Positions 3,409-64,000 of a DNA stretch of 64,000 bases are shown in pieces. Numbering within the stretch: position 1 is the stretch's first letter; every line of letters starts with the position of its first letter. The position numbers were made by a program, and so were the translations under genes. Source of the DNA: an uncultured virus (IMG/VR IMGVR_UViG_3300022555_000035) (taxonomy: Duplodnaviria; Heunggongvirae; Uroviricota; Caudoviricetes); the IMG/VR virus record IMGVR_UViG_3300022555_000035; one strand, 5' to 3'. The notes under the pieces are model-generated. The model was not told the DNA's origin and made no database searches. It was given only the letters and a program-made list of their open reading frames with translations.

Positions 3409-3417
3409 TAACAAAAT

Positions 3418-3500: not shown

Positions 3501-3530
3501 ATTGCTGTAATTCCTTAAAGTTTTTCCATT

Positions 3531-5464: not shown

Positions 5465-8400
5465 TCATTCCTTTCCCTCCTTATACTTTTCAAGATTCCC
5501 CCAATTCGTGCCTATTTCAATATCTGCTATAAAGGGCATATCAGTCTTTAGATACTTGCCAGGAAGCGTTTGCATGGTGTGTAATATAGGTGCGACTACC
5601 AGTTTCACATTTTCTTTCGGTAATTCGAAGAGTATTGAGTCGTGTACCAGTATGAGTATCTTCGCGATGTCTCTTATTGAATGGTGTAGTTGTATAGCCG
5701 ATAATAGTGTCAGATCGCTCGCAGTACTTTGGATAGGGAAATTCACTGCCTCATTTTCCGTATTCCATAGGTTTTCCTTTGTAAGGAAGGGGAAACGTCG
5801 TTTTCTCCCGAAAGGCGTTGACTGTGTAATGCCTTGACTCGGAGTACTTCTACTCCACTCGATATATTCTGCTGCTTTTGGGAACCGCTTGTACCAGGCA
5901 GTTTTAAGGGCTCTTGCTTCCGCGACCGGAAACGCATGTTCTTCCGCAATGCTTTCCGGAGTGCGTCCATATGCAATCTGCTCTGTACTCTCCTATTACT
6001 AGAAGTGTCGGACTATGCCTTACAAGAATATTCTTTACGCCATTGCTTATATCTCATTATAAAATCTGCGCGCCAATCAGTAGTAGCTTGTGTACGATTT
6101 CGTGGCTGATCCTGTGGCTGTGCTAGCCACTCATCGTAAAAAGCTAATTCTTTTTGTTTTACTAATACGAACTCACGTATATCTGACATAAAGCGTGCAA
6201 GATACGTACCTGAGATTCTAAAATTATACATTTGTCGGTTGGTACTATCATGCCCAAAAACATTTCCTTCTGGATATTTTTCTAATAATGCATCCATAAG
6301 TTCCGGCTCTGATCCAGATATACCTATTTCACATTTTAGATATCCAGTATCTTTTCTGAGCAAAAACGATATATGTCCCTCACCGTCAAATATACCTGCG
6401 ACATAAGCATTGTGTAACATAATATTTTTGTCCCTCCATTATATATGTTCGTTTGATTTAATTATACTACACTTTGGAAGTTTAGTCAACCCCCCAAAGA
6501 AAATATAATTAGTCGACATTATAATAAGTCTCTACACGCTCTAAAGGCTTTATCCTTTAGACTTTGCGCACGGCGTTGACCTTTCGAAGGCGTTGATCTT
6601 TCGAAGGCTTTCACCGTATTGAGGAGGGTTTTACTTCGGCATTGTTGTTTACCGAAATTAAATGCTTTAGCTCTTACACGTTGATTCTTAGTATAGCCAG
6701 GTCCGTAAAGTTCTAAAGATACTTCATCATGAAGATCCTTACCATCATAATATAGCTTCATCATATCAGGACACTTTGCTAGGACTGCAAGTACTCGCAA
6801 CTCACAGTTATGAACTATTACTCCGTTGGCGCTGAACCTATTATTTGGCTGATCCATTAAGTCATATACTTTTGCCTCTCTTCCTGAAGATACTATCTCT
6901 TTTACTTGATCCCAATGAAATTGTTTGTACCAAGATATATTTTTCTGTAACTCCTCATCTTCATCTAAGCACAAGTCTTGTATCTTATTACGCGTATATG
7001 GCCTTCCATTTAGATGATTTAAAACATATTTGCGATAGTCTATTCTTTTTACGTTGCGTATTAATGCTACAGGTATCGGTAAGTAATTACTTTGATCTCT
7101 TCTTGCTCTTGTATTAACCAGTTGCAATATTTGCTGCTTACGTGATAGCTGAAACCCAATATTCATCTGAAAATTACGTAGGCTAACGGCATCGCAAATA
7201 TGTACTTTATACTGAAGTGCTCCTCCTTCTACATAATTATATCCCGTACGTGTAGTAATTAATGTAGACATGATGCCAAAACGAAGTAATGCTAATTGTA
7301 CATCTCTTGATAATAGCTCAAACCGAGAAGAAAATTCTATGCCGTTAGCATCAATACTAGCATCAGCATCAAATAATCCCGATAAGAAATCAGATAATCC
7401 ATTAGCGGTTATCTTATTAAAAGGTATGCGTAATGATCGCTTATCAAACATACTATGTAACCGCTTTACTAAACCTGCCTGATTAGTAACATTAAGAGTA
7501 TAGCTACCATAATCTCTAGGTATTTCACTTATACCTTGAGCAATTAATAAAGCTATCTGCTCTTCATCTACTGGCAGCTTTTTAGAGAATTGTAATGTTC
7601 CTTTTGAATTATGAAAGCTGCCATCACCTACCCAAAAACCAACTACCCACCAAAAAGGATTAAATACCTCTTCTTCAAAACTTTCTCCTTGTAAAGCTAT
7701 CCAGTCTCCTTGTTGTATCTCAGATAAAGGTTTCCAACCTGTAGAGGTTGCGATTTGATGATCCTTAGTACATTCTACATTGTATCCTCTTTCTGTAGTC
7801 AATATACTAGTAGGACTTTCTCCTTTATAAATAGCTTCAGGATGATCTTGAATACGAAAATCATCAGATACCCAAGTATCTTCAGCTATGCACTGCGAGT
7901 AATCTGCTTGTATAAAGATATTGTTTCCTGTAGGTATAAACGCCGTTTTAATAAGCTTACCACGGGGAATATTTTGTACATTAGGTCCTCGAGAAGCAAG
8001 TCGTCCTGTGGATGTTCCGTGGATTAGAAACGAAGTATGTACCTTCTTATCCACTTCAACTTGCTCTTGTAATCCTTCAATGTATGTTGAAAACAGTTTT
8101 GTAATTTTACGATGTTCTGCTAATCGATTGATAAGCAGATTAGCATTTCCCCGAGCTTCCCACTCAGTAAGTAATTCCGGAGTAGCTTCAATTGCTTTAT
8201 CACTGGGTTTCTTCAAAATCTTAGTAAGCCAATACTCAACAGCATCTGCATCTGTAGTTGTAGAACCTTTGTACTTCGGCATCTTTAGTAGATGATGCAA
8301 TACATAACCGAGCTGTTGCCAAGAACCAGGATTAAACACGGGAGGTGGTTTCTTCGTTCCTACATGTTGCTGATACTTGATAGGATTCCAACCAACCATG

Positions 8401-9674
8401 TCAGCAATACCCAAAAGTGTTTCTTTTACTGTTGCAATATGCTCAGTATACTCTTCGCTAATCTTTGCCATATATTTCATATCAATTGCTGCACCTTCAA
8501 GCTCAAAATCAGCTAAAGCATTAGATGCAGGAATCAAAACTTCAGTATAGGCAAAATGTAGCTGATCCTCTGTTCGTACTTTTTGATCAAATACTTTGAA
8601 TATCCGGAAAACATAATCTACGTCGTGTGCCGTATACTGTAACAACTCGGCACGAGGTGCGGCACTGTAATCTTCAAAGCCGTCAACTAGTTTTTTGAAC
8701 TTTGCCTTATAATTTGGCGCACCTAATATCTGTGCAGATAATAAGTCAAGATCGTGAATCCCTTTACGTTCATCCAGAAGATAGTGAAGTAACATGGTAT
8801 CTTCATCTACTCTGGCATTGATACCGAGATGGCGAAGAAACTTAACGTCGAACTTACCATTATGCCATAACCAGCGAGGGCCTTCCATTTCCCATAGCTG
8901 TTTGAGCAAAGGTATGCACTCTTTATTGTACATAATTTCTTCGTCAAATATCGCGGCATACCCTTCCTTCCAGGCGAATGCAGCTGAAAATGCCCTGTTC
9001 GATATTGGTGAAAATCCCGTTGTCTCCAAGTCACATGATATTATTGGCTGCTTCTTTAAAAACTCGATAAAGTCAGGCAAATGCTTTGGTGACAAGATAT
9101 CATATCGTGTCCTTAGATCAATAGGCTTATCATCATATGTAGGATTATCCAAGAACTTTTTGACTTCTTGCCACTGGTTTACGAAATCAGTAAATATCTT
9201 TGGAGACTTCATTACTGCTGAAGGATGTATTACAGGTATGATTGAACAATTAAACTCAGGAGACCAAAAACGTTTACCTGCGTGTGTATTAAGTGGTTCT
9301 TTTTTACGTAAAATCTGATGTAAAGCAACTTCGCCCATTGGTACAATTAGTATAGGTTTACATAATGTAACTTCGTCTACTAAACGATCTCGACAACAGG
9401 TAAGTTCAGTAGACGTAGTTACTGCAGCAGGATTACGACAAATAGCTGCATAAGTAATATGTACCTTGTCAAACTCAATATGCAGCTGTCCGAGAATGTT
9501 CTTAAGTAATTCTCCTGCCTGTCCTGCGAGAGGCGTTTTGAACATTGTCTCTGTAATAGTAGGAAAATCCCCGACGAGTATGAGCGTAGATTGGTCTGGA
9601 CCACTCGGTACTCCACTGGGCTCTTTCTTCAGAGGACAATGCGAACACTTAGCATTCTCAAACTTATCACTCAT
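5465..9674 (-). CDS. polA: Family A DNA polymerase with N-terminal UDG-like and 3'-5' exonuclease domains; join(6651..9674, 5465..5977)
   Basis: Exo DLETTG/HNGKFD/YTAHD; TGRLAS..PNVQNIP; motif A DYSQ|CELR; motif B RAKAFNFG|IAYG restored by removing the intron; motif C VHDS. Confidence 0.95.
6013..6420 (-). CDS. Single-motif LAGLIDADG homing endonuclease encoded in the intron
   Basis: AYVAGIFDGEGHI motif; own GGAGG RBS and promoter. Confidence 0.88.
   Translation of the reverse strand: MLHNAYVAGIFDGEGHISFLLRKDTGYLKCEIGISGSEPELMDALLEKYPEGNVFGHDSTNRQMYNFRISGTYLARFMSDIREFVLVKQKELAFYDEWLAQPQDQPRNRTQATTDWRADFIMRYKQWRKEYSCKA
6461..6489 (-). promoter_or_regulatory. sigma70/sigmaA-type promoter inside the intron
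   Basis: TTGACT-17 bp-TATAAT upstream of the endonuclease. Confidence 0.75.
6807..7892 (-). mobile_element. Intein (362 aa) with LAGLIDADG endonuclease in polA motif A
   Basis: Starts CIAEDT, TKDHQI block B, VGFWVGDGS and FLSGLFDADAS, ends FSANGVIVHN|C. Confidence 0.93.
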
Positions 9675-13867: not shown

Positions 13868-13880
13868 TATCTAACCCCCT

Positions 13881-14069: not shown

Positions 14070-14082
14070 ATCCCAATCTATA

Positions 14083-15125: not shown

Positions 15126-15827
15126 TTATAAACACCTCCAATCAATTACTATTGCGTAGTCAATCGGGTCTCGTACTCCAAGTTGCTTAAAAGCAGCAAT
15201 TCTGCTAATGCAGGTAGAACATACTCCACACGCCGGCCTAGCTCCGTTATAGCAGCTATGTGTAAGCTCAAAGGGAGCATACGCTTCGAGTCCTCGGACG
15301 ACAACGTCATATTTGGTATCATTGACCAAAGGTGTGTAAAGTCGCACTTTATGGTATGTTCCGATGTAAATAGCGCATGCCATTGCTCCGATAAATTCTG
15401 CAGAACAGTCCGGGTAACTCCACGAGCGAGCATCTTCACTATGAGCTCCGTAACAAACCGTGTCTGCTCCCTCGACGAGTGCAAGTGCAGTTGCAGCGGA
15501 GAGAAGATTACCGTTCCGAAAGGGTACGTATGTAGGTGATACACCTATACTCTTGGCGAGTTCCTCATAAGTAGTTTCAGGATTCGGGCAATCGGCGTCA
15601 ATCAAAGTCGAGCCTGCGCCTGAGAAGATTGGCGGAAGTTCTTTAATGATGTGCGAAATTCCAAGTTCCTTGGCAATCAGTTTTGCCTGTTCCAGTTCGA
15701 CAAGATGCTTCTGTCCATAACCGAGTGACAAAGCGATGACATTGTCCGCGCCCAGCTGCCTGACCAACATAGCTGCGCACGTAGTTGAATCTAATCCTCC
15801 ACTGAGTAATACTACCGCTTTCTTCAT
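15126..15827 (-). CDS. queC: 7-cyano-7-deazaguanine synthase
   Basis: SGGLDS, YGQKH, TYVPFRN, YPDC, SCY...CG.C..C. Confidence 0.96.
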   Translation of the reverse strand: MKKAVVLLSGGLDSTTCAAMLVRQLGADNVIALSLGYGQKHLVELEQAKLIAKELGISHIIKELPPIFSGAGSTLIDADCPNPETTYEELAKSIGVSPTYVPFRNGNLLSAATALALVEGADTVCYGAHSEDARSWSYPDCSAEFIGAMACAIYIGTYHKVRLYTPLVNDTKYDVVVRGLEAYAPFELTHSCYNGARPACGVCSTCISRIAAFKQLGVRDPIDYAIVIDWRCL

Positions 15828-26452: not shown

Positions 26453-26947
26453 TTAAGAAAATAACCCATTATCGGCGCGAATTCTTTTCCTCGCAGCTCC
26501 GGCAAACTGGTCCACTCGGTTATTCCAAAAGCTATCCCGATGGCCTTTTATATGCGTCCATATAATTGTAAACCCCCTTCCCTGCAACTCGTTAACCAAT
26601 ACGAATAATTCGGTCCATAAGTCTTTATTTAATACTGGTCCTGCAGATCCTACCCACTCACTAGCAAACCATTTTTTATACCATTTCTGTAAGAAACAGT
26701 TTACTACGTAGGCGCTATCTGTTCGCAGGGTTATGGGCTCTTCTGGTTTCGGTATCAGTATTTTACCGCACATACGTAAGCCTTTGATTACGGCTTCAAG
26801 TTCCATTCGATTGTTAGTAGTTTCTTGGCGTGACTGGTTTTCCTCAGCGATTAAGCATGCTTCGTCTGTTTCGCCGTTAGTGATGCAGAACGCCCAGCCT
26901 CCGAAACCTTTTTTATCACTCGATCCATCCGTCCACAGGTAAACCAT
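26453..26947 (-). CDS. rnhA: Ribonuclease HI
   Basis: TDGS, TTNNRMEL, TDSAYV, NKDLW, HIKGH, N..VD..A. Confidence 0.93.
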   Translation of the reverse strand: MVYLWTDGSSDKKGFGGWAFCITNGETDEACLIAEENQSRQETTNNRMELEAVIKGLRMCGKILIPKPEEPITLRTDSAYVVNCFLQKWYKKWFASEWVGSAGPVLNKDLWTELFVLVNELQGRGFTIIWTHIKGHRDSFWNNRVDQFAGAARKRIRADNGLFS

Positions 26948-45967: not shown

Positions 45968-46921
<954 letters not shown>

Positions 46922-47078
46922 CCTAAACCAGTTCATCCCAGCTGCATGGCCCTTGCTGGAGCCAAATAATCCATTTCTTCCAAACTGGCACATTGACTGT
47001 ATGTCAGAGTATCTCACGGCAGTTTCTCAGGGCGAAATCCGTCGTCTCATAATCAACATTCCGCCGAGGTACATGAAG

Positions 47079-47549
47079 CCTGTTTCTGTAGACTCCCACA
47101 TTCTTCTACAGTCAGGGGAACGAAAACGTCTAGGGGATATTCAGGTTGGAGACATGGTTATCACTCATACAGGGCGTGCACAAAGAGTCAGCGCTGTCCA
47201 TGGGCAGGGCCTTCTTCAATGCTTGGAAATTAGTTCTGCCGGCCGTTCTGCCGGCCGTTCTGCCGGCCGTTCTGCCGGCCGTAAAGTAATTACTGCTCCT
47301 GATCATCCGTTCTTAACTCCTCGTGGCTGGATCCAGGCACAGCACCTCACACTAAAAGATAAACTATTCCAAACAAAAGACGAGAACGAACACCAATCTC
47401 CTCCAGGCGCAGGCGCAGGCGCAGGCGTACGGCATTTTTTACTCACGGGTATACAAAATATTACCCCCTCTAAAGACATGCACGAATGTCGTTGTCTTAC
47501 TGTAGAGAATGACCATAGTTTTACTGCTAACGACTTAGTAGTAAAAAAC
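47079..47549 (+). mobile_element. Mini-intein (157 aa), Pro-initiated, class-3-like
   Basis: PVSVDSHILLQSG..LGDIQVGDMV, TAPDHPFLT..GW, CRCLTVE.DHSF.ANDLVVKN|S; no endonuclease. Confidence 0.85.
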
Positions 47550-49041
47550 AGTCTTAGTGTGAGTGTAATGTGGCCCGTCTGGACGTGGATTACAAATCCA
47601 CATCTCAGATGGCTTTTTGCATCCTATTCATCGGGTCTGAGCACAAAGCACTCCATTGACCGGAGACAGATAATTCAGCACCCTTGGTATAAAAGTCAAT
47701 GGGGTCATGTGTATCAATTGGCAGGAGACCAGAATATTAAAACGGAATACATGAACACTGCGCGGGGACACATGTTGGCGACATCCGTAGGAGGTACTGC
47801 CACTGGTAAGGGTGGCGATGTCATTGTAGTCGACGATCCACATAACCCTATGCAAGCGGAATCCACAGCCCTTAGAGAAGCAGCCGTTGAATTCTTTGAC
47901 AGAACGTTGACAACTCGACTGGACAATAAGAAGACTGGTGCCATCGTCGTTGTTATGCAACGGCTGCATGAGATGGACCTGACCGGCCACCTGTTGAAGC
48001 AAAACAATACTCTTCGCCCACCCCCACTGTACGAGAACATCGATGATTACGGTAACTTTATTGATCCGGCTGATTGGGAATCCTTACGAGATGAGCACAC
48101 AGCTGAACAAGAGGCAAACCCGTTAACAGAATTAGAAAAACAGTTACTCCAGCCTGTCCCAGGTGAACGGCCGACTTCGGAGCAACTAGCCAAAGAAGAA
48201 GCTCGCCTGGAAACTAACATCAAAGACAATCAGGGGCAAATTTGGACGCACCTTTGTCTCCCAGTTACCGCTAGGAAAGAAACACAGGTTCACTTTCCGG
48301 TTAGTAATACTTACTATCTGAGAAAGGAGGGCTCTTTGTTATGGCCGACTCGAGAAAACCGAAGCGACCTCCAAAACGTTAAGACGGCCCTCGGTACTTA
48401 TGGCTATTCTGGACAATATGAACAAGATCCTGCACCTGAAGGAGGAGGAATCCTTCAAACAGCCTGGTGGAGATACTATGCTATTATGCCATCAGTTAAA
48501 GATATAGACCAAGGCGTAATCTCTATCGACTGTGCCTTTAAAGACTTGGCCGATAGCGATTACGCCTGTTTACAGGCATGGTGGAAGATAAAAGCCAATA
48601 GATACCTCATAGACCAAATTAGAGGCAAATGGTCGTTTCCGACGCTTTTAGCTAACGTACGTGCATTTATCCGTAAACATGACGAGTGCAAAGCAAGACT
48701 TATTGAAGATAAAGCAAATGGCAGCGCAGTAATTCAAACCATACGAGATGAAGTTACTGGGATCATTCCAGTAGACCCAAGAGGTGGCAAAATCGCGAGA
48801 GCTCACGCCGTCTCTCCTCAGGTGGAGGCAGGAAATTTTCTGTTACCTGACCCACGCTTACAGCCATGGGTATCAGATTTCATTCTAGAATGTTCTAGAT
48901 TCCCCAAAGCCCAAAACGATGACCAGGTGGATTGCTTTACTCAAGCAGCAACATATATGGAAATCAAACAATTCAGTACCTGGATGGCGAAGATTAATTG
49001 GCTGTAGGTACCGTCCATAATTACAAAGGAGGTTATTTAAG

Positions 49042-51459: not shown

Positions 51460-52584
51460 ATGGCTGGCAACATTCTTAATTTTTATGATCCATTGTTTTA
51501 TGCGCAGGAAGCTCTGATCGTCCTGGAAAAGGAACTCGGATTTGCCTCGCGTATTCACCGTGGATACAGCCCTACACCGCAACAGAAAGGTTCTACGATT
51601 AATATCAGCAAGCCCGGCACTTTCACAGCGAAAGATGCCCCTGGTTCTGATGCTCAGGCCGTAGAAGCTGGCGGAACCACGATCGTCCTCGATACGTGGA
51701 AAGAAGTCAAATTCAAACTGACCGACATGGAACTGACGTTCACCAAAGAAAAGATCGTCTCCGATCACATTCGCCCGGCTGCTTATGCGTTGGCTGACTC
51801 GATTGACCAGCGTTGCGCGGCTATGTACAAAGATATTTACAACTACACCGGTGCGGTCAATGAGCTGCCGACGGCGATCACGGACATGACCAAAGTCCGC
51901 CGGATGTTCCAAGATCAATTGATTCCCGATGACGGACAGCGTCACTGGGCCATCAATAGTGCTACAGAAGAAGGCTTGCTTGCCCTCGCGATCTTCAACC
52001 AAAACGCTGGTGTACCGAGTGCAGCAGCTGAGGCTTTCCTGAAGGGTTCGCTGGGTAGCAAATTCAGTTACGAAATCTTCGCAACCCAAAATGCGCCTTC
52101 GCAGACCAATGGTACGGCTACTGCGGCTAATGCTTCGGGAACTGCCGGTGCATCTACCGTCACGCTCGCTTCTGGCTCTGGCGCGACTCATACTTTCAAA
52201 CAAGGTACGATTTTCACGATCGCTGGAGATTCTCAAAAGTATGTTGTTACCGAAAACCTCGCATTGGTATCTTCGGCCGGCGTATTGAAAATCTCTCCGA
52301 AACTGGCCGTCACTTGTTCGTCTGCTGCGATTACGCTCCTCGCCGCACATTCTGTCAACTTGGGCTTCCACCGGAACGCCTTCGCATTGGCTATGGCTCC
52401 TCTGTCCGAGCTGGGTAACAGCCTCGGTGTCCGCATGAACACATTGAGCTTCAATGACTTGTCGCTTCGTTCCAAAGTTTGGTACGATGCGGATTCCAGT
52501 GAACTGCGTGTGTCGCTGGATTGTTTGTACGGCGTTAAGACGCTCGATCCTCAACTCGCATTCCGTTACATTGCCACTCCTTAA
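51460..52584 (+). CDS. Major capsid protein (P22 coat-like)
   Basis: KGSTINI.KP, IRPA..ALA..ID, N.GFHRNAFALA, DCLYGVK.L. Confidence 0.85.
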   Translation: MAGNILNFYDPLFYAQEALIVLEKELGFASRIHRGYSPTPQQKGSTINISKPGTFTAKDAPGSDAQAVEAGGTTIVLDTWKEVKFKLTDMELTFTKEKIVSDHIRPAAYALADSIDQRCAAMYKDIYNYTGAVNELPTAITDMTKVRRMFQDQLIPDDGQRHWAINSATEEGLLALAIFNQNAGVPSAAAEAFLKGSLGSKFSYEIFATQNAPSQTNGTATAANASGTAGASTVTLASGSGATHTFKQGTIFTIAGDSQKYVVTENLALVSSAGVLKISPKLAVTCSSAAITLLAAHSVNLGFHRNAFALAMAPLSELGNSLGVRMNTLSFNDLSLRSKVWYDADSSELRVSLDCLYGVKTLDPQLAFRYIATP

Positions 52585-52600
52585 GTAAGGGTGTACGGCG

Positions 52601-53008
52601 ATGATCGAGTTTCAACAATACCTTGAGCAGGAATTGCGGGAAGTAGTACGAGAAGTACCGTTAGATTTTATCGAACAAGCTACTCGTACACTCGATGGAT
52701 TTTTTACACAGTTTGCTTCTGCAGAGCATAGTAGGGTAGCAATGCAGGCATTCGAGTACTCAATGGGGGCTCAATTGGAAATCGATTTAGGCGTACCGTT
52801 ATCGTTTCTGCTCACAGGTACTGGTGAACATGGTCCTGATGCTTCTGGATTTATTGTGGAGTCACCTACAAATAACATCCTGTCTTGGGAAGATAACGGA
52901 GTAAGGCGTTTTGCATCTCGCGTATACAACCCGGGACAAGAAGCCCAGTTTTCCGAACAGGATATGGTCGATGCAATTACGGATGCTTATGTTAGTGAGG
53001 AGGATTAA
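52601..53008 (+). CDS. Neck/tail completion protein (putative)
   Basis: FLLTGTGEHGP...L.W......FA..V.NPG; position. Confidence 0.55.
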   Translation: MIEFQQYLEQELREVVREVPLDFIEQATRTLDGFFTQFASAEHSRVAMQAFEYSMGAQLEIDLGVPLSFLLTGTGEHGPDASGFIVESPTNNILSWEDNGVRRFASRVYNPGQEAQFSEQDMVDAITDAYVSEED

Positions 53009-53837: not shown

Positions 53838-54620
53838 ATGGCTATTGCAACCACTGCAACCCCGTCAGCTGAGAATCTTATGCTTGGTGCCGGCGTAGTC
53901 TACTTTGATCGCAAAGATGCCTCCGGCAATAAAACAGGTGAGCGTCATCTCGGTAACTGTACGGACTTCACGGTCAACACGACCATCGAGAAAGTCGAGA
54001 AATTCTCCTCAATGCAATCCGCGAAGCGCTTGTACAAATCCACCATCAAAACCATTAAAGCGACCGGCAAAATTACGCTTGATGAATATGATGTCGAAAA
54101 CCTGTCCCTCGCACTGCTCGGCGAAACCGGCGTAATCACCCAAGCTAGCGCCACTGTTACTGCCGAAACTTTTACCGCCCACCTCGGCCGTTGGACCAAA
54201 TTGGCAAATCGTAATATTGCTTCGAGCGGCATTGTTGTCAAAGATGCTGCAGACGTCACTGTTCCGGCCAGCAATTACGAAGTGGATCTCGTCACCGGCC
54301 GTATCAAGATTATCTCTACCAATACCGCTTCTATTGTTGAAGGCGAAGCTTGCAAAATTGCATACACTTCCGCTGCTGAAACGTACCCGAAGATTGTCGG
54401 CGCAGCCACTGGTAAAATCGAAGGCCTGGTTCGCTTCATCGGCGATCCGACCTCCGGTCCGAAATACGAACTGGAAGCCTGGAATTGTTCCGTTCAGCCG
54501 GAAGCTGAAATCGGCCTGATCTCCGACGACTTCAAAAACTTCGTTCTGGATCTCGAAATCCAGGACGACTCCATTGCCCATCCCGATGATCCTATGTACC
54601 GCCTGATCAAACTTACCTAA
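53838..54620 (+). CDS. Major tail tube protein
   Basis: LGAGVVYF, RHLGNC..F, G..RFIGDP..GP motifs. Confidence 0.8.
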   Translation: MAIATTATPSAENLMLGAGVVYFDRKDASGNKTGERHLGNCTDFTVNTTIEKVEKFSSMQSAKRLYKSTIKTIKATGKITLDEYDVENLSLALLGETGVITQASATVTAETFTAHLGRWTKLANRNIASSGIVVKDAADVTVPASNYEVDLVTGRIKIISTNTASIVEGEACKIAYTSAAETYPKIVGAATGKIEGLVRFIGDPTSGPKYELEAWNCSVQPEAEIGLISDDFKNFVLDLEIQDDSIAHPDDPMYRLIKLT

Positions 54621-54664: not shown

Positions 54665-55477
54665 ATGGCAGCTGTTCCAAGTGCCGATAATCTACTTTTA
54701 GGTGCAGGAGAAGTCTACTATGCAATGTATGATAACTTAGGCGTCGAAGGTACGACTCGGCATTTGGGACACTGCTCTGCTTTTTCTTTGCAAGTCGAAG
54801 TAATAAGTAAAGAGATTCCCTATATTCGTACAGCAATTACTGATTTACCAAGATACAAAATAGTTGGTTTCAAAGTAAAAGGCTCTGTAACGATGGATGA
54901 TATGTCTGCTGTTAACTTAGCAGGCTTTTTGGCTGGTGGAGTAGATTCGTCACATGTACAAGCAGCGTCTACAAATTCTGTTACTCTTCCTTACACAGTA
55001 GTTAAAGGTACATGGATTGGTCTTTATGATACAAATGACATCATGATAAGGCATAGAGTATTTGGCACGCGTTTAATAGATGTGTATGCAGGAGCTACTC
55101 ATTACGTCGCAGGGAGGGATTACGTATATCATGCTCGTGCAGGCTTCTTATACATTCCGACAACATCAACCATGGTGGCAAATACTAGTTTGTATATCTC
55201 TTATGATATACCCGCAGCCGTTATCAATCAAATATCAATAGCTTCTAGTGATCCTAACCCAGGAAGACTTACTTTTATTGGAGACCCTACAACTGGTCCT
55301 GCATATATGGTAACTGTTAAATCAACATTAAATACCTCAACTGGTCCTGTAAGCTTTATCGGAGAGGATTTTGCTTCAGTATCAATTGAGTTTGAAGCTC
55401 TGGACCATTCTGGTAAGATGCTAGATGGTACTACAGGATTTTGGGACATAGTAGAATTACCTCCCGCGCTGGTCTAA
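54665..55477 (+). CDS. Second tail tube-like paralogue
   Basis: PSADNLLLGAGEVYY..RHLGHC..F; GRLTFIGDPTTGP, collinear with 53838-54620. Confidence 0.75.
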   Translation: MAAVPSADNLLLGAGEVYYAMYDNLGVEGTTRHLGHCSAFSLQVEVISKEIPYIRTAITDLPRYKIVGFKVKGSVTMDDMSAVNLAGFLAGGVDSSHVQAASTNSVTLPYTVVKGTWIGLYDTNDIMIRHRVFGTRLIDVYAGATHYVAGRDYVYHARAGFLYIPTTSTMVANTSLYISYDIPAAVINQISIASSDPNPGRLTFIGDPTTGPAYMVTVKSTLNTSTGPVSFIGEDFASVSIEFEALDHSGKMLDGTTGFWDIVELPPALV

Positions 55478-55523
55478 TTGCTTCCAGGTGAACGCGCGTT
55501 TTCAGGAGAGAGGAGAGTGCAAC

Positions 55524-55988
55524 ATGTTCGAAACTGGCGATTTACAAGTTCTATTTCCGAACAGAGAAATCACCCTTAACGGTGAAACAATTGAAATCAA
55601 ACCCTTTCCATTCGGTAAGATTCCAAAAGTAATTAAACAAGCAAGTCACCTCATACAAATAGTAATGTCACTTCCAGAAGGTCTTATCACCGAAGAGGGC
55701 GACATTAACCTAGAAGATCCTGCGACTGCTATTGTACTCGCCTCAATGATGGAACACGGCGGCGGCGTTATTTTTGAAATACTAGCCATTGCTGCCAATA
55801 AACCGTTAGTTTGGGTTGAAGAGTTACAGCCGGACGAAGGAATTTTACTTTTAGTAAAGGTATGGGAAATAAATAAAGATTTTTTTACGAAGCGGCTGGG
55901 CCCAATGCTCCAGCAGTTAAAGCTACCCAAAGGCTTAAAACAGCAGCTTCAGATCCCTTTAGGTGGGGAGCCGTTATCCACAAACTAA
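55524..55988 (+). CDS. Tail assembly chaperone (G-like)
   Basis: Between tail tube and tape measure genes; EINKDFF motif. Confidence 0.75.
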   Translation: MFETGDLQVLFPNREITLNGETIEIKPFPFGKIPKVIKQASHLIQIVMSLPEGLITEEGDINLEDPATAIVLASMMEHGGGVIFEILAIAANKPLVWVEELQPDEGILLLVKVWEINKDFFTKRLGPMLQQLKLPKGLKQQLQIPLGGEPLSTN

Positions 55989-56188
55989 TAGCATCCGGGC
56001 ATAGCTGGTCTGATATCATCAATGTTTATACTTTAGCACAAATTAAGCTATTTTATAAAGAAGCAAAGATAGCAGACCAGATAAAAGGTGCCGATGTGAT
56101 AGAACAAACTTTCATAGGAGCACAAGGTAGTCATGACGGAGTAATTAAGCTAACTGACGCAATGAGGAATACGCGTGCGGAGGTGTAA
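55880..56188 (+). CDS. -1 frameshift extension of the chaperone (GT-like)
   Basis: T-TTT-TTT at 55880-55886; -1 frame open to TAA 56186-56188 (…WGAVIHKLIASGHSWSDIINVYTLAQIKLFY…). Confidence 0.75.
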   Translation, partial: FFYEAAGPNAPAVKATQRLKTAASDPFRWGAVIHKLIASGHSWSDIINVYTLAQIKLFYKEAKIADQIKGADVIEQTFIGAQGSHDGVIKLTDAMRNTRAEV

Positions 56189-56248
56189 CAACCCTATTTT
56201 TATAGTTTGATAGGGTTGTTTTCTATATAGTTTAGGGGGTATTTCAAA

Positions 56249-59200
56249 ATGGCGAAAAAGGGCGACAAGGAAATAAAAGTAGTACTAAATGCGGATCTAA
56301 ACATTAAAAAAGTATTAGCCGCGTTACCTGCATTATCAAAAGCAGTAGAGTCATCTACTAGCGGACTATCTGCAGAGTTGATTAAAGCTCTTAATGAAGG
56401 TTTAGGAGTTATTGAGCAGCATAGTGCATCGATATTAAAAAAGTTTCGGGATGACAAACAAGTAGGTAAAGCTTCTGCGATTAAAGCAGCTTTACCAGAT
56501 TTTAAAAACCCGGCCGACTTCCTGTTGAATTTGAAAGATATGGAGCCTGCAATTGCGCAGTTGAAGAAACTGCTCTCTGATGCTGCCTATACAGATATTA
56601 CACCTGCTGTACTTAACTCGGCAAAGCAAGTAGCTAGTTCTAAAAAGAAAATAAATGACGCTGCTAATAAAGAAGAAGTAAAAGCAACTAAAGCAAAAGT
56701 AGACGAGCAGTTAGCGGCAATTAAAGCGGCGGCAGCTGAGGCAGTAGCTAATGCGCCTACGTTAAAAGTTACTCTCGAAATAGAAGCAATTAAAGCTAAA
56801 ATGGATGAAGCTGCTATTGCTCGGGATCCGAAAGCGTATGAAGCACTACGTAAAACATATGAGCAAAAGAAATTACAAGAGTCACAAGAAATTGCGAAAG
56901 CTACCAAAGTAGAGTCAGATAGACTACTTGATATAGAGAAGAAAGCTGCTGTTGAGCGGCAACGTGTATTAGATAATATTAATCTCGAACAGCGATTAGC
57001 AGCGCAGCGTCGGCGTAAAAAGCAAGAAGACGATGATAAAGAAGCTGCTAGATTGGCTTTATTTAAACCCGGAGAGCGTTTAGATGAAGCTTTTGGCATG
57101 ACTGTTACCCCTCCTTCTACATTGCGTAGAAAAGAGCTTATAGGAAGAGTGTTTACACCCGAAGAAAAAGAAGAGCTTCGTAAGGACGCTGAAGAACGCC
57201 GTAAGGCAATGACAGAGCAACAGAAGATAGATGATGCTCAAGCAGCAAAAGATTTTGCAGAAGAGCAAGCATTACTTGAAAAACGCGAGACGCTTCGAAT
57301 TAACGCCGCTTTGCGTAGATATAGCAGGACTAAAACAAACCAACGCATTATGCGAGATACAGCACGTAAAAGTACTATTGCTGATGTATATCCTATAGAA
57401 GAACTTCCTACATGGGATCCTGAACAGCCAGCAACTAAGCCCATGGGAGCTACCGATAACTATATAGCACATCAACAAAAATATGCAATTACTACTGCTC
57501 AATCGGAAGCAGCTACTTTAAGACTGGTTACTGCTTTGGAAGAGCTAAAAGCCGCACAACAAGGAGTATATTCTCTCGATACCGAAACAAATAAGAAAAA
57601 GTACCTCTATGATGATCCTGGCGTAGCTCCTAAAGTTGCAAGCGACGCGTGGATGACACGTTCTATTCAAACGGCAGCACCTGGCGTAGAAGGTACGATG
57701 ACTGATATACTTCACATGACTGACAGAGGTAAGCTGTCGCAGAAAATGGCTACACAGTTACCTATGCTCCAGAAACTTTTGAATGATCCGAACTTACTAC
57801 TTGTCGGTAATAATATTGCCTATGACGTATACCAGATGATACAAAACGGTTTCCAAGTTCAGAATAAGCCGTTGAATTTGAATACTTTTAGTAATATTAT
57901 ACGAAGCGAAGCTACAGCAAAGCCGCTAGATTTGCAACAACTAGCAGAAAGGTATGCCGCTGATGAGTATAAAAAAGGAGGCGCAAAAGCAGTTGTTAAA
58001 GACTCGGGAGTATCACAGACTACTAATAAAGGACAGAAGTTCTTAAAGCCTACAACTATTGACTATGGTAACTGGGATGCTGAAGCTGCAGTAAGTATTT
58101 ATGCTGGTATGATGAAAGAGCTCAGAGCTGAGCTTACTACTAAATATAAAAATGCGGGTGTAAATCCTGCAGACGTAGATAAAGTAGTTGACCAGGTAGT
58201 TAAGCAGTTAGTCGACCTAGGCGTACGGATGTCTCAAACACTAGTAACCAACTTCTATAAAGAGTCTAGTAAAATAGGCGGAGCCAATCAAGCAGATCCA
58301 CGAATAAAAGAAAAAATAACTCGTCCCGCAATGATGTCTTTCGTAAATGCTCCTATACTTGCTGAGCAGATAAAAAATAATGCTTTACCTGATGCTGCAC
58401 TTGCAGCACTAACGGCACAACAACGAATTGCAGCTGCAAGAGATTTACCAGCACAGGCAATTAAACTTGCTGGTGGTGTAATTGGTACTGATAGTGGTTT
58501 AAGCCCCGCTAATCTTATTAAACAATTAGAAAATCAGATAAACATATATATGCAGGCTCAGAAGGAAGGCAGGCAAGGAAATGTTACGCCTACCTTTTTA
58601 GAGTCTTTTAAACATATACAGGCACAATTTTCTCCTGGTTCTTTGGTAGGACAGATTGACAGGAGTTCTGCCGATCCTAAGAAAATTATTAAGCAATTTC
58701 AATCATTGAAATTATCAGCGTCTATGGTGCCTAATGAGATGAAGCTTTTTGAGCCTACGGTAGAAAAGATCTCAGATAAAGCTAATGCGATACTGAAAGT
58801 AATTGATGAATTAAAATCCATCAGTGTATATATGAATGCCGAAAAGAGTACGGCTTCTAGAAAAGGAGCGGCTTCTGAGTATTTACAATTCACCAATCGT
58901 TTGGAAAATATGAAATCTACTGCTATGCTGATCAATAAGCTGAACACACAGTTCAGAGAAATGTTACTGAGCGGTGCCGATTACGATAGTGCAGCTGTAC
59001 AAGATGTACTGGCACAAATAAAGAAACAGACAATACCGTTTGATAAGCAAATTGCAGAAGCTGCATCGATCACAGTACCAAAAACTAAAAACTTCCCATC
59101 GCTGCAACAGCCTTATGACAATATTATAGATAGAATGTTTGACATGATTCGCGATGCGCGTAGTATCAATGACGTAAGCTTATCTACTCCTAAAGGATGG

Positions 59201-62200
59201 ACCGGTACACGTGCTGCATTACCTGCAGAAACATATGCTTTAAAAGATATCAAAGCATTAGCTGCACAAGTTAAAGGATCTGCTGCTCTTACTGAAAGCG
59301 GTGTAGCTACAGGAGCAGTTTCTGCGGACATGCTATCTAGTCTGCAAAAATCTATACTAGCAGACAATGCTAATATGATTATTTCTCAACTTGGTAAGCA
59401 AACACTGGACTTCAAGAAAATGGTTACTAAATTAGGTAAGATGGAGACCAATATTTCTCCCGCAGCACAGCAGAATCTGATTGCTTCTATGGCAACAGTA
59501 CAGCAAGCTGCTAAATATCAACAACGTATGGAAAAATATTTGGGCGGCCCTGTAGCGCAAGCAAATCCGGCAATTACTGATGATGTCAGAAGTAAAATGG
59601 AAACACGTGCCGCTACGATGATGCATCTGGCGTTCCGTCAGTTCCAGGATACGTTAACTACTGCATTATCTGGAGCAATGAAAACACCCTTCGCGGTAGA
59701 CGCACGTAAGCTACTGGATAATATGCCTTTAGTCAACGCAGGATTCCAACGTGAAAAAGGCGACATGGAACAATTCCAATCTAAACTGTACGCCAATGCG
59801 GTATATTCATTATTGGGTAGAAAAGAACGTACTACTCATCGAGTAGAAGACAGTGATATATTTCAGCAAGCTAGTCAGTTTACTATTGAAGCAAACAATA
59901 TGCAAGAACGTCTTTATGCAAAAGATGATATAGGTCAACGTGTTGCATTTGAAGACCAGCGAACTACTGCCACTTTCTATAAGAATGACAAAGCAACCAT
60001 AGGCGCTAAAGTAACTGAATTGGAAGCAATGGTACGAGATATCACTGCTAGCTTAGACGAATTAAAGGCTAAAGCAGTAGAATATGCTACTCCTCCTCCT
60101 GATTCAGAAGCTGCTTGGAATCCTAAAATAGTTGAAGCTAATAAAGCTGCTATTGGTAGAACTCAGGATTTATTGGCAGATGCTAAGGCCGAGGTAATGC
60201 AGGTTAAAACATTACTTGACCATCGTGTAGTAATGGATTCTCAACTACTAGCATTTAAGGAACTGGATGAGACAGGGCGTACAGGTATTATAAACCCTGC
60301 AGCTATGGAAAATGCAGTGCGTAATGAGAAATCTATACGTGATGCTATAGTAAGATTGACTAGTCAAATAAAGATTGCTCAAGAAGGTCTGAAAAGTGGC
60401 GTAAAGTATGCTATTAAAAAAGGTGTACCTGCCGATAGTGCAATTTTAGCCGACTATCAAGCAAAGGGTATAAGTACTCTTGATTCGGCTAATGAGCGAT
60501 TAAGTCTACTACATAAACAATACATAGAAGTATTGTCAGCTAAACAGGAAGCAACAGATGCCATACTCGGCGCTACACCTGAAGGCAAAGAGAAGATAGC
60601 CGTACGTGACCTGAAAGCTAAAAAAGAGCAAATTCTTCGCCAGACCCGAAAGGCGTCTCCAGGCGAACGGGCCGAATTGACTGCACAATTAGATAGCATC
60701 GATAAAGAGTTATCACAGTATGTTGATTCCATTGATGTACGGTTAGCTAGTATTAAAGAGTTGTTAAAGATACATCGTGCAATAGCTACTGGTACAGATG
60801 CTGATAAAGTATATGAAAAGTCTTTAATAGACACCAGGGAAGAACTGAAGCGTACACGTCGCGGAGCCCCTCCAGGCGGAGGCGCCTCTGATAGAGAAAA
60901 ACAAAGAGTTACTTTACAAGATATAGAAGCTGCTAAATTAGCTTATACTGCTGATTATACTCGTGCTGTTACTACTGGTGGTACTGCAGGAGAATTGCAG
61001 AGTATTGAAAAGGCTATATCTGATTTAGAATTAGCTAGAGTATTAGAAATCAAAAAATATACTGCACAACAAATGGAAGATCCAGGACTGATGCAGGCTC
61101 TTCAACGAGAAGCGAATGCTACAGCGATGGCAATGATTAAGAAATCAATGAATAATGCTCTAGCGTCTGCTCCTACAGCAAGTGTAGAATCTGTACGCTT
61201 AAATATGGAGCTTACAGCTCTTAATAAACGTACCAAAATGCCGTTAACAACTGAGCAATATCGTTCGGCGGAAAAGAAAGGGCTTGAACAAGAACGCCTA
61301 GGACTGTTACAAGATCTTGGTAAAGCTCCTGTAGATTCTGCTGAGTATAATAAGCTGGTCAAAGCTCTTAATACACTCGACACCGTTTTTGAAACAATGT
61401 TTGGTCTCTATAATAAGCGTATATCTACTGCACGTGCTTTAATAACAAATTTAGTTGCTAAAGGTGATATGGAGTCTCCTGCATATGCAGCAGCTATAAA
61501 ACAGTTAGAAGAGGCAAAGAAACAAGCATTTTATGGTAAAGGAAATGCTCCCGGAACCTATCAAGCAAAAGCAGCACAGGAAGATAAAATAGCAAGTTCT
61601 GTCGGATTAGTCAATGCACGTTTAATGCAGTACGTAAACATGGCTGCTACTTCTGATCCTAGCACTGCAGATAATAAACGTAGTTTACAAGATATTGAAG
61701 CAGGATTAAGTCATGCTATCTTTGATAAACTGAAACTCATAAGCAAGACACCTATGACACAGCGTGATACTGCGTGGGAAAGAAGTTTATGGATAGAAGC
61801 GGACGCTCAAGCGTATATGATGATAAAAAATACGCTGGAGAAAAAGCTCAGTAGCGTATATGCAGGAGAAAAACCTGAACAAACTAATAATATTCAAATA
61901 GCTTACGAAGCTTTAAGGTTACGTAAACCTGCACCTCTTGGTTCTGGTAGGCCATTAGATGCAAAGATAAACGATTTACAGAAGCAATCTCAGGCAGAAA
62001 TTACCAAGATAATGGGAGAATATTCTGCTGGACAGTTTACAGAGATGTATACTGCTATTAAGAATGCTCTTGCAAATCCACAGTCTGCTTTAGGTAGTCT
62101 ACAGGCACAGATAAATCAGGCAATGGGAATAAAAAATACCGCTGCAAATTCTCAGAAAATGATGATGGCTGGTCCTATACAGGCAATGAAAATGTCTGCT

Positions 62201-64000
62201 ACTACTGGGTTAAAAGATATCATGGACCAGGTAATGACTACTACTCCTAAAGGATCTGCTGGGTATCCTGCACTAATGCGACAAGCAGAAGCCTATAGAG
62301 ATACACTAACTAAAATTGCTAATATTAATAAAGAAGTATTCGGCGAGCATGCCACTGGTGCACAGGAGAAGACAAGAGGATTCTTCAGTTCTATGATTCG
62401 TGCAGCTACTGCTTTAGGAGCTGCTTGGTATATGATTAGTCGTATACAAGTAGCATTCCAAAGTCTTGTAATGCCGGGATTGACATATGCAAGATTAATT
62501 GAGACTACTAATGTAGGATTTGCTGCCATACTGATGTCAATGACTAAGTTGAATGGTCAGTCACTTACATGGGTTCAATCAATGAATATGGCCGCTGATT
62601 TATCTAAAGAAGTGACAGATAATGCTCTTCGTTTTGGACTAGATGCAATTGAACTACAAAAGCTCATTCAAGGTGTCGTAGGTGCAGGTCTCGGTTCTAA
62701 TATGTCACTCGAACAAATTATCAGATTATCTACAGTTGCAGCCTCTGCTATTAAGCAAATTGGATTACCTGATACACAGTTCATTCAAGAAGTTCGAGAT
62801 ATGATGCAGGGCGGTATTCAGATACAGAGTTCCGTTCTTGCTACGCAGTTAGGTTTGACTGACGCGATTGTCAATCAGGCCCGTGCATCTGGAACGGTAT
62901 TTGAAATGCTTATGGAACGGATGTCTGGTTTCGCTGCTGGACAATCTGCCGTATTTGATACTCTTGACGGAAAAGTAAACATGACTGTTGACGCTTTCAA
63001 ACGCCTTTCAGCTGAAGGCGTGGCTCCGTTGATTAATACGGCAAAGCCTGTGCTCGATTTCCTCTTGAAAGAAATGATTACAAACTTTGACGCTTTCAGA
63101 AAAGGTGCTTCTCCTGAATTCAATACTACTTTTATAACAAAAATGCAAGAGGCAATACGTACTTTTATAAAAGTATGTAGAGATGCTATTAATGTACTTG
63201 AAGTTCTATACAATGCTTTTAAAATAGTAAGTAAAGTATCAGATTGGTTACCTGGTTCTGGTACTTCTCAATTAGCAGCAGTACTTATTTACTGGTTCGG
63301 TATTAGGAAAATAATGGTAGCTCTTCCTGCAGCAGGTAAAGCAATTGTAGCAATGTATCAAGAAATTAAAGCGGCTGCATACGCTGCATCAATTGCACAA
63401 ACACTTGCTGGAGGAACTGCAACTACAGGTACTACTGCTGTTGCCGGTGCTGCTGTTGCCGGTGCTGCTTCTAGAGTAATATTAGGCTCCGCAGGCCAGG
63501 TAATAAGTACTGTAGCACCTGCAGCTGCCGCTGGTACTGGTATAGCAGGAGCACGTGCTCTTGTAGCCGGCGGAGGATTAGGTGCGGGCATATTAGCTGC
63601 TTTTGGCGGCGCTGCTGGTATTGCTAGTGTTGCTCTTCCAATAATATTAGCAGTAATTGCTACAGGCGCGATTGCATATTATTTAAGTAAGAGCGGTTAT
63701 GGTAGTGCTTTACCTACAGAAAAAGCTCCTTCTATAGCAAACTTTACTGCAATGCGTAAAAAGTATGATAGCCCTCTCGAAGGTGAAGATGCTGGAGAGA
63801 TTGGTAGTCTCTACGAAACCTATCAACGAGAGATAGTTCTTATTGATGACAAGCGTAAAGAACTGTTAGAGACGTTCCGCGTAGGTAATATTGATAAAGA
63901 AAAGCTCACCACCGAACTTACCGCCCTATATGAAAAAGAAGTTGCAATGGATATCGAGCGACAAAAAGTTGTTAAAGAGGCTCTCGAGAAGCAATTACTA
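56249..64000 (+). CDS. Very large tape measure protein (>2,580 aa, truncated by the window) with an embedded exonuclease domain
   Basis: ATG 56249 after AGGGGG; the same frame is open wherever read and at the window end; Ala-rich helical sequence; TMP-like core at ~62350-63100; TM-rich Gly/Ala region ~63250-63690. Confidence 0.85.
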   Translation, partial: MAKKGDKEIKVVLNADLNIKKVLAALPALSKAVESSTSGLSAELIKALNEGLGVIEQHSASILKKFRDDKQVGKASAIKAALPDFKNPADFLLNLKDMEPAIAQLKKLLSDAAYTDITPAVLNSAKQVASSKKKINDAANKEEVKATKAKVDEQLAAIKAAAAEAVANAPTLKVTLEIEAIKAKMDEAAIARDPKAYEALRKTYEQKKLQESQEIAKATKVESDRLLDIEKKAAVERQRVLDNINLEQRLAAQRRRKKQEDDDKEAARLALFKPGERLDEAFGMTVTPPSTLRRKELIGRVFTPEEKEELRKDAEERRKAMTEQQKIDDAQAAKDFAEEQALLEKRETLRINAALRRYSRTKTNQRIMRDTARKSTIADVYPIEELPTWDPEQPATKPMGATDNYIAHQQKYAITTAQSEAATLRLVTALEELKAAQQGVYSLDTETNKKKYLYDDPGVAPKVASDAWMTRSIQTAAPGVEGTMTDILHMTDRGKLSQKMATQLPMLQKLLNDPNLLLVGNNIAYDVYQMIQNGFQVQNKPLNLNTFSNIIRSEATAKPLDLQQLAERYAADEYKKGGAKAVVKDSGVSQTTNKGQKFLKPTTIDYGNWDAEAAVSIYAGMMKELRAELTTKYKNAGVNPADVDKVVDQVVKQLVDLGVRMSQTLVTNFYKESSKIGGANQADPRIKEKITRPAMMSFVNAPILAEQIKNNALPDAALAALTAQQRIAAARDLPAQAIKLAGGVIGTDSGLSPANLIKQLENQINIYMQAQKEGRQGNVTPTFLESFKHIQAQFSPGSLVGQIDRSSADPKKIIKQFQSLKLSASMVPNEMKLFEPTVEKISDKANAILKVIDELKSISVYMNAEKSTASRKGAASEYLQFTNRLENMKSTAMLINKLNTQFREMLLSGADYDSAAVQDVLAQIKKQTIPFDKQIAEAASITVPKTKNFPSLQQPYDNIIDRMFDMIRDARSINDVSLSTPKGWTGTRAALPAETYALKDIKALAAQVKGSAALTESGVATGAVSADMLSSLQKSILADNANMIISQLGKQTLDFKKMVTKLGKMETNISPAAQQNLIASMATVQQAAKYQQRMEKYLGGPVAQANPAITDDVRSKMETRAATMMHLAFRQFQDTLTTALSGAMKTPFAVDARKLLDNMPLVNAGFQREKGDMEQFQSKLYANAVYSLLGRKERTTHRVEDSDIFQQASQFTIEANNMQERLYAKDDIGQRVAFEDQRTTATFYKNDKATIGAKVTELEAMVRDITASLDELKAKAVEYATPPPDSEAAWNPKIVEANKAAIGRTQDLLADAKAEVMQVKTLLDHRVVMDSQLLAFKELDETGRTGIINPAAMENAVRNEKSIRDAIVRLTSQIKIAQEGLKSGVKYAIKKGVPADSAILADYQAKGISTLDSANERLSLLHKQYIEVLSAKQEATDAILGATPEGKEKIAVRDLKAKKEQILRQTRKASPGERAELTAQLDSIDKELSQYVDSIDVRLASIKELLKIHRAIATGTDADKVYEKSLIDTREELKRTRRGAPPGGGASDREKQRVTLQDIEAAKLAYTADYTRAVTTGGTAGELQSIEKAISDLELARVLEIKKYTAQQMEDPGLMQALQREANATAMAMIKKSMNNALASAPTASVESVRLNMELTALNKRTKMPLTTEQYRSAEKKGLEQERLGLLQDLGKAPVDSAEYNKLVKALNTLDTVFETMFGLYNKRISTARALITNLVAKGDMESPAYAAAIKQLEEAKKQAFYGKGNAPGTYQAKAAQEDKIASSVGLVNARLMQYVNMAATSDPSTADNKRSLQDIEAGLSHAIFDKLKLISKTPMTQRDTAWERSLWIEADAQAYMMIKNTLEKKLSSVYAGEKPEQTNNIQIAYEALRLRKPAPLGSGRPLDAKINDLQKQSQAEITKIMGEYSAGQFTEMYTAIKNALANPQSALGSLQAQINQAMGIKNTAANSQKMMMAGPIQAMKMSATTGLKDIMDQVMTTTPKGSAGYPALMRQAEAYRDTLTKIANINKEVFGEHATGAQEKTRGFFSSMIRAATALGAAWYMISRIQVAFQSLVMPGLTYARLIETTNVGFAAILMSMTKLNGQSLTWVQSMNMAADLSKEVTDNALRFGLDAIELQKLIQGVVGAGLGSNMSLEQIIRLSTVAASAIKQIGLPDTQFIQEVRDMMQGGIQIQSSVLATQLGLTDAIVNQARASGTVFEMLMERMSGFAAGQSAVFDTLDGKVNMTVDAFKRLSAEGVAPLINTAKPVLDFLLKEMITNFDAFRKGASPEFNTTFITKMQEAIRTFIKVCRDAINVLEVLYNAFKIVSKVSDWLPGSGTSQLAAVLIYWFGIRKIMVALPAAGKAIVAMYQEIKAAAYAASIAQTLAGGTATTGTTAVAGAAVAGAASRVILGSAGQVISTVAPAAAAGTGIAGARALVAGGGLGAGILAAFGGAAGIASVALPIILAVIATGAIAYYLSKSGYGSALPTEKAPSIANFTAMRKKYDSPLEGEDAGEIGSLYETYQREIVLIDDKRKELLETFRVGNIDKEKLTTELTALYEKEVAMDIERQKVVKEALEKQLL

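Follow-up and report, generated by a model that had tools for sequence, protein, structure and literature searches.

A predicted DEDDy exonuclease domain within the giant tape measure protein of an uncultured phage

We analyzed a DNA stretch of 64,000 nucleotides from an uncultured virus of the Caudoviricetes (IMG/VR record IMGVR_UViG_3300022555_000035), which is called the window in the following, and found that the gene running into its end, the putative gene of the tail tape measure protein, encodes at residues ~420–650 a region with all residues of a DEDDy 3'-5' exonuclease active site. Taken as a whole, the data are best explained by a tape measure that carries such an exonuclease and delivers it in active form at entry, a reading to which we assign a probability of roughly 0.6.

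The exonuclease-like domain and its fold

The predicted domain, its three motifs and the stretch that separates the first two of them are located in the window as follows.

57506..58198, + strand: DEDDy 3'-5' exonuclease-like domain, predicted, residues ~420–650 (Pfam PF01612, ESM Atlas, AlphaFold 2 (AF2) model)
57572..57589, + strand: Exo I motif SLDTET, residues 442–447 with D444 and E446; the D and E columns are invariant in 60 sequences
57596..57721, + strand: lineage-specific low-confidence stretch between Exo I and Exo II, residues 450–491; low predicted local distance difference test (pLDDT) values and gap columns in alignments
57809..57826, + strand: Exo II motif NNIAYD, residues 521–526 with N521, Y525 and D526; the D526 column is invariant, and phage PolA exonucleases have NGKFD at the aligned position
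58061..58078, + strand: Exo III motif DYGNWD, residues 605–610 with Y606 and D610; across 60 sequences the D610 column is invariant and that of Y606 conserved to at least 90%

The original prediction, which was made from the letters of the window, had described a DEDDy domain of the PolA/RNase D type inside the tape measure protein. All motif strings that it named were found at their places, with the Asp444 codon at 57578, and the tape measure has LDLQQL at residues 560–565. The structural part of this claim stands, carried by the five catalytic residues, the profile, the fold and the synteny. The suggested function, a nuclease brought along by the virion that might attack host nucleic acids, genome ends or defence oligonucleotides, is an inference. 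The region has the motifs Exo I (DxE), Exo II (NxxYD) and Exo III (YxxxD) arranged as in the DEDDy exonucleases (Klenow/PolA, RNase D, WRN and Nibbler; PF01612), at comparable distances: D444 and D526 are 82 residues apart, D526 and D610 are separated by 84, and the corresponding spacings in Klenow are 69 and 77. Unlike these enzymes, it contains 42 unmodelled residues after Exo I and before Exo II, and its setting is different: it is embedded in a structural protein of 3,606 residues, whereas they are part of a polymerase or stand alone.

Profile searches recovered the same family. The Pfam profile PF01612 (DNA_pol_A_exo1), whose curated cut-off is 23.6 bits, gave 26.4 bits (E 7.2e-6) on an excised piece of 300 residues, 25.7 bits on a differently cut piece and, when all six frames were searched, 25.6 bits. 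The match spans positions 56–172 of the 173 profile positions and thus covers Exo II and Exo III, with Exo I lying outside. When the giant protein was cut into 18 overlapping pieces of 350 residues, PF01612 was the sole Pfam family above its cut-off. We also built a custom hidden Markov model (HMM) from 101 exonuclease domains, namely that of the phage's own PolA, those of 72 of 80 viral PolA loci and those of 28 of 30 RNase D-type loci; left out were the copy of the phage's own PolA and seven duplicate rows on the viral side, and two RNase D-type loci from genomes flagged as unpublished. With this model the piece obtains 16.2 bits over a match that runs from Exo I to Exo III, a value that none of 2,000 shuffled sequences reached (best 6.6).

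In MAFFT alignments of the piece with either 8 or 59 exonuclease domains (the latter 59 comprising 26 RNase D-type and 32 viral domains and the phage's own PolA), the only four invariant columns are D444, E446, D526 and D610. The Y606 column is at least 90% conserved, so that all five DEDDy residues are in register, at an overall identity of the domain to any aligned exonuclease of only 10–22%. A strict motif pattern, picked after the sequence had been seen, was found in 0 of 5,000 shuffles. Alignment-free language-model features led to the same family: PF01612 accounts for 26 of the 30 nearest ESM Atlas clusters, with a top score of 0.95 and 182 of 256 shared features, and these neighbours are mostly viral stand-alone exonucleases of 200–222 residues. 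PF01612 was counted in 54 of 81 genomes, including three flagged as unpublished, on which nothing else described here is based. Altogether, we regard the sequence signal of the exonuclease domain as modest and as lying at the edge of detectability.

The AF2 model computed with the 60-sequence alignment reached a mean pLDDT of 70.4 and a predicted template modelling score of 0.70, with strands and helices in the order of a DnaQ-like fold; values below 50 were obtained at model residues 36–45 and 53–77. Compared with 48,161 PDB representatives (VIA), the best 30 matches of this model were all DEDD nucleases or polymerase exonuclease domains, led by Klenow with a Z of 15.2 (root-mean-square deviation 4.1, 188 residues aligned), Nibbler (14.9), WRN (14.9), the apicoplast polymerase (14.2) and RNase D (13.3). 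Foldseek searches of the PDB, with Klenow as best match (E 1.6e-3), and of BFVD returned the same families. The RNase H-like/DnaQ fold that the original prediction expected is thus present in the alignment-based model, the alignment itself being made of exonucleases. Taking profile, alignment, language-model and fold results together, residues ~420–650 very likely adopt a genuine DEDDy fold, that is, a DnaQ-like variant of the RNase H fold.

A fold of this kind does not need to be a working nuclease. The region could instead be a nucleic-acid-binding or structural module, which for example holds the leading DNA end or adds bulk, comparable to the exonuclease-like domains without activity in some polymerases and RNA-binding proteins. 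Indeed, the neighbours at similar Z include the exonuclease-like domains of M. smegmatis Pol1 (13.9), Pol theta (13.8), Egalitarian (13.6) and Exd1 (12.2), which we take to be non-catalytic, and the exonuclease-like regions of actinobacterial PolA proteins score 26–34 bits in Pfam, like the tape-measure domain. The long unmodelled stretch in the domain core and the lack of homologues that would display conservation point in the same direction. Against such a silent module speaks that the four acidic residues and the tyrosine all stand in the right alignment columns, while degenerate members of the family usually lose some of their catalytic residues. On balance we consider a non-catalytic domain unlikely and somewhat favour one that is catalytically active.

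The giant protein and its relatives

The tail genes around the domain and the landmarks of the giant protein are listed below.

53838-54620 and 54665-55477, + strand: two tandem major tail protein genes (paralogues; phrog_807, E 8e-48 and 1e-26)
55488..55988, + strand: tail assembly chaperone (phrog_1442, E 2e-26; Pfam DUF6631)
55877..56188, + strand: -1 frame over the chaperone end, candidate G/GT-type frameshift extension (stop-to-stop frame, 103 residues)
56249..64000, + strand: gene of the putative giant tape measure protein; ATG start, open frame, the window ends at codon 2,583; 3,606 residues in full
62384..63529, + strand: conserved core of the putative tape measure, residues 2046–2427 (phrog_30973, unknown function, E 1.6e-19)
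63578..63688, + strand: hydrophobic Gly/Ala-rich segment, residues 2444–2480; the sole run of 19-residue windows with a mean Kyte-Doolittle value above 1.7

From the ATG at 56249 to the end of the window there is no stop, giving 2,583 codons in one frame, and the public virus record contains the whole gene, again in one frame, with 3,606 residues. This agrees with the earlier claim of an open reading frame (ORF) that has no in-frame stop between the exonuclease region and the tape-measure core. Fifteen contigs from three sources, the longest of 85,674 bases, carry this protein in identical form. A second full-length copy differs in 2 of 3,606 residues; it belongs to the four-member protein cluster of the giant protein, which also includes two fragments. 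Because the same frame and protein recur in these copies, the giant ORF is not an assembly artefact.

Upstream, the gene order is TerS, TerL (with an intein), portal, P22-type major head protein, three small genes, the two major tail proteins and the tail assembly chaperone, followed by the giant ORF. Downstream, the public record continues with two phrog_2913 genes, a tail assembly protein (phrog_778), a minor tail protein, a tail protein of 777 residues (phrog_4271) and fibres. The giant ORF thus sits between the tail chaperone and the distal tail genes, where a siphovirus has its tape measure. Homology points to the same identity: a C-terminal stretch of 137 residues (within residues 3468–3604) is 40% identical to the end of the tape measure gp063 of Dinoroseobacter phage vB_DshS-R5C (E 2e-20), and NCBIfam RcGTA_tape matches residues 3565–3605 weakly, at 27 bits under a cut-off of 220. 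Two other giant proteins (P0004 and P0005, with 2,193 and 2,024 residues) align to residues 1987–2332 with 28–32% identity, and the hydrophobic segment comes after the conserved core. By position, synteny and C-terminal homology we are therefore highly confident, somewhat more so than about the fold, in reading the giant ORF as the tail tape measure protein.

Several further details were seen in this tail module. It holds two tandem pairs of paralogues, the phrog_807 major tail proteins and the phrog_2913 genes. The latter resemble genes of gene transfer agents (GTA), encode 204 and 561 residues and lie on the + strand directly 3' of the tape measure gene (622–2926 of the downstream sequence). 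A T7 run at 55880–55886, at the start of the -1 frame of the chaperone, is a possible slippery site, at which the chaperone may obtain a G/GT-type frameshift extension. At 56189–56225, between the end of this -1 frame and the start of the tape measure, there is an inverted repeat (AACCCTAT ... ATAGGGTT) followed by a T run; read by eye, it looks like a terminator-like hairpin just 5' of the 10.8-kb gene. Beyond the end of the window, at residues ~2843–2915, an H-x6-D-like motif, together with a second one that contains His, is reminiscent of zinc D,D-peptidases of the Peptidase_M15/hedgehog type. This stretch gave no Pfam match, no PDB sequence match and ESM Atlas scores of only 0.82–0.83 to Peptidase_M15_3 clusters, and we treat the possible Peptidase M15-like motif in the C-terminal part, seen by eye, as a lead only.

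Judged by the major head protein, Dinoroseobacter phages vB_DshS-R5C and R26L and Pseudanabaena phage Pan1 come closest among cultured phages (37–38% identity), with SSP002-like Vibrio phages next. The phage of the window accordingly appears, at the sequence level, to be an uncultured siphovirus distantly related to Nanhaivirus (R5C, Pan1). The annotated tape measures of R5C (gp063, 1,018 residues) and Pan1 (gp32, 876 residues) lie in the same surrounding gene order, including the GTA-like distal tail genes. They are, however, 3.5–4 times shorter, carry PhageMin_Tail or TMP_3 together with Tape_meas_lam_C, and have no PF01612 at E<=0.1. Compared with them, the giant protein is predicted to possess an N-terminal extension of ~2,000 residues ahead of the conserved core, which is not present in the R5C and Pan1 tape measures. 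R5C and Pan1 also have a gene for a 'DNA transfer protein' of ~545 residues between the head and neck genes (2560–4209 of the comparison sequence). The idea that this protein has moved into the tape-measure extension was rejected: it shows no similarity to the giant protein or the window, and there is no such gene at 52584–52601.

The origin of the domain was addressed along several routes. The only copies of it that were found are the phage's own, at two IMG/VR loci with 100% identity and in its protein cluster. One word-index search returned only the protein itself and another 0 of 1,136 candidates at E<=10, and tblastn and megablast searches of 50,697 phage records gave nothing at 1e-3. In tblastn at E<=10, 15 Streptomyces phage records match 20–28% of the piece with E values of at least 0.08, at genes for Holliday junction resolvases, and were taken as chance. 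One candidate source lies within the window itself.

6519..9674, - strand: the phage's own DNA polymerase I (uracil-DNA glycosylase, 3'-5' exonuclease and polymerase domains, with an intein; Pfam)

A descent from the exonuclease domain of this polymerase was rejected (best BLASTP E 1.6; an HMM of that PolA exonuclease subfamily scores the piece at 1.7 bits), and so was a recent foreign insertion, the guanine-cytosine content of the domain being equal to that of the rest of the gene. The Bacillus phage 0305phi8-36 protein gp146, which is annotated as a hypothetical tape measure and as detected in virions by mass spectrometry, gave no Pfam match at E<=0.01 and no phmmer match in the PDB at E<=1. 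The domain is a sequence orphan that keeps the complete catalytic set, and it shows how far such domains can diverge.

Weighing the reading: chance, cargo and precedent

A number of results weigh against the reading of a delivered, active exonuclease and are collected here. On the whole protein (2,583 or 3,606 residues), PF01612 reaches only 21.2–21.7 bits, under its cut-off of 23.6. With hhalign, the score is 22.9–23.8, with E values of 0.005–0.01, a probability of 4–7% and coverage of Exo II–III only, and the NCBIfam match amounts to only 12.6 bits. A PHROGs search of the domain gave no match at E<=1, and phmmer against the PDB found nothing significant (Klenow E 1.2). No relatives of the domain were detected among 1.84 billion representatives (phmmer, 0 matches) or 5.8 billion clusters. 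The single-sequence AlphaFold model has a pLDDT of 41.8 and is unusable, and in the alignment-based model the 42 residues at positions 450–491, where strands 2–3 would be expected, are modelled at a pLDDT below 50. Since this model was built on an alignment of exonucleases, its fold match is supporting rather than independent evidence. PF01612 was found in none of the six other tape measures scanned, namely P0004–P0007 (distant giant homologues, E<=0.01) and those of R5C and Pan1 (E<=0.1). The giant protein itself shows no Pfam tape-measure family (PhageMin_Tail, TMP_3, Tape_meas_lam_C etc.) at E<=0.01, either as a whole or in the 18 overlapping pieces, whereas R5C and Pan1 do have such families. 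Finally, a tail-tube lumen of ~4 nm is a poor fit for multiple folded copies of a 25-kDa domain. Because of this poor fit, the domain may be unfolded, located elsewhere or cleaved off.

Some of these results could mean that the resemblance is due to chance, the stretch being simply a part of a helical, charged tape-measure extension without any DnaQ-like fold. Beyond the low hhalign probability, the missing matches in PHROGs, the PDB and the protein databases and the uninformative single-sequence fold, this explanation can draw on the shuffling controls, in which 1 of 100 shuffles equalled the hhalign score and 51 of 5,000 shuffles of the whole protein contained the loose three-motif pattern. 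It would leave unaccounted for a Pfam E value of 7e-6 against the whole library, the custom HMM score that shuffling never produced, the agreement of the alignment-free features and the register of five out of five catalytic residues. We consider a chance resemblance very improbable.

How would an exonuclease come to be in a tape measure? Tape measures with an embedded enzyme are familiar from T5 pb2 and from mycobacteriophage tape measures with an Rpf motif, which carry muralytic cargo. These likewise contain an enzymatic module used at entry, but one that cuts peptidoglycan, whereas the module described here belongs to a family of nucleic-acid exonucleases. Full-text literature searches that combined tape measure with exonuclease, nuclease, DnaQ or DEDD found no paper describing an exonuclease inside a tape measure, as judged from the listings.

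The closest published precedent is the RNA polymerase that is fused to the tape measure of Thermus phage P23-45. According to excerpts of its description, gp96 is a tape measure of 5,002 residues whose N-terminal part is the virion RNA polymerase; the polymerase is present in virions on the full-size chain and is suggested to function at the site of entry while the DNA passes through the pore (PMC10770324). As in gp96, a nucleic-acid enzyme would here share one chain with a giant tape measure, within its N-terminal extension at residues 420–650 and ahead of the core at residues 1987–2427. The enzyme of gp96 is a two-barrel RNA polymerase and not an exonuclease, and the paper contains no mention of nucleases (PMC10770324). 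Packaging and activity have been shown for gp96, while both are proposed here. The architecture thus seems to be that of an enzyme-bearing tape measure as in gp96, but with a different enzyme.

At infection, tape measures exit from the tail and assist the passage of the DNA through the envelope, and structural work on other siphoviruses places their N-terminal part towards the head and the leading DNA end. In the course that we propose, the domain, with its two-metal site (D444, E446, D526 and D610) and the general-base tyrosine Y606 intact, would enter the tail during assembly as a portion of the tape measure chain. Its place would be in the N-terminal part, facing the head and the leading DNA end, and at infection it would leave the tail along with the rest of that protein. 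It would then act as a metal-dependent 3'-end exonuclease at the pore by which the DNA enters or immediately inside it, possible substrates being host or competitor nucleic acids, short oligonucleotides or a 3' end of the incoming genome. For lambda, excerpts of a recent preprint describe that the tape measure becomes labelled from the cytoplasmic side during injection and that a membrane-bound defence nuclease targets it (bioRxiv 10.1101/2025.11.03.685801). We put the chance that the domain is carried in the virion and delivered at slightly less than even.

An exonuclease could be active without being cargo of the virion. The N-terminal ~2,000 residues would then be cleaved off or made as a separate product that acts late in the infected cell, in replication, recombination or the breakdown of host DNA, and the C-terminal part would be left as the sole ruler. 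This explanation would fit the finding that all detected homology to other tape measures lies at residues 1987–2332 and 3468–3604, that close relatives manage with 876–1,018 residues, that globular domains pose a general steric problem in the tail tube and that lambda and T5 process their tape measures by proteolysis. It is at odds with the single frame without an internal stop and with the proofreading PolA and the RNase H that the phage already encodes for intracellular work. In P23-45, moreover, the N-terminal enzyme remains on the full-size protein in virions, as the excerpts report (PMC10770324). We hold a purely intracellular role to be distinctly unlikely and keep the preferred reading of a tape measure that delivers its exonuclease.

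This reading can be carried one step further, to a delivered exonuclease that is active at the cytoplasmic mouth of the pore and serves as a weapon of counter-defence or takeover in the first seconds of infection. Such an enzyme would trim the 3' ends of host or rival nucleic acids or destroy defence or priming oligonucleotides, with the phage's own DNA spared. We regard this as a long shot. The sparing would be brought about by a 7-deazaguanine modification of the phage DNA or by the tape measure shielding the end. The first of these two possibilities is connected to a four-gene cluster for preQ0 (7-deazaguanine) at 13072–15827 on the - strand.

13072-13641, - strand: GTP cyclohydrolase I (FolE)
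14083-14691, - strand: radical-SAM QueE-like gene
14688-15125, - strand: QueD/PTPS
15126-15827, - strand: QueC

Because FolE, QueD, QueE and QueC are encoded, the phage DNA may carry 7-deazaguanine. The gene content of the preQ0 cluster suggests modified guanines in the phage DNA, and a DpdA-type transglycosylase was not identified among the window ORFs scanned. One may speculate that 7-deazaguanine could let the exonuclease tell self from non-self.

Further genes of the window and significance of the domain

Three essential genes of the phage contain inteins, namely those of the large terminase, DNA polymerase I and ThyX. The terminase gene (46857–49007, + strand) has an intein splicing domain at 25 bits, below the cut-off, the polymerase gene (6519–9674, - strand) an intein with a LAGLIDADG domain and the ThyX gene (3531–5180, - strand) an intein with HNH. 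In DNA polymerase I, a domain of the uracil-DNA glycosylase family is fused ahead of the 3'-5' exonuclease and polymerase domains. The gene at 15824–18670 (- strand) encodes a protein of 948 residues in which a DnaG-type zinc finger, a Toprim primase and an MCM-type P-loop helicase domain are fused. At 26453–26947 (- strand), 11284–12298 (- strand) and 1284–1829 (+ strand) we noted RNase H (83 bits), a MazG-like pyrophosphohydrolase (23 bits), a 3D-domain protein and an Amidase_2 endolysin candidate.

Of all phage proteins, the tape measure is the one that crosses the envelope first, with the DNA directly behind it. To our knowledge, the enzymatic cargoes that tape measures are known to carry comprise cell-wall hydrolases and a single RNA polymerase, the latter known since 2024. 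If the reading of a delivered exonuclease is true, some phages place a nucleic-acid-degrading activity at the entry pore. As far as the excerpts of the preprint tell, this is where membrane-bound defence nucleases attack the incoming DNA (bioRxiv 10.1101/2025.11.03.685801). The fate of DNA ends, host nucleic acids and defence oligonucleotides in the first seconds of infection would then become a testable question, and the phage may bring a ready-made nuclease to the very site at which its DNA enters the cell.

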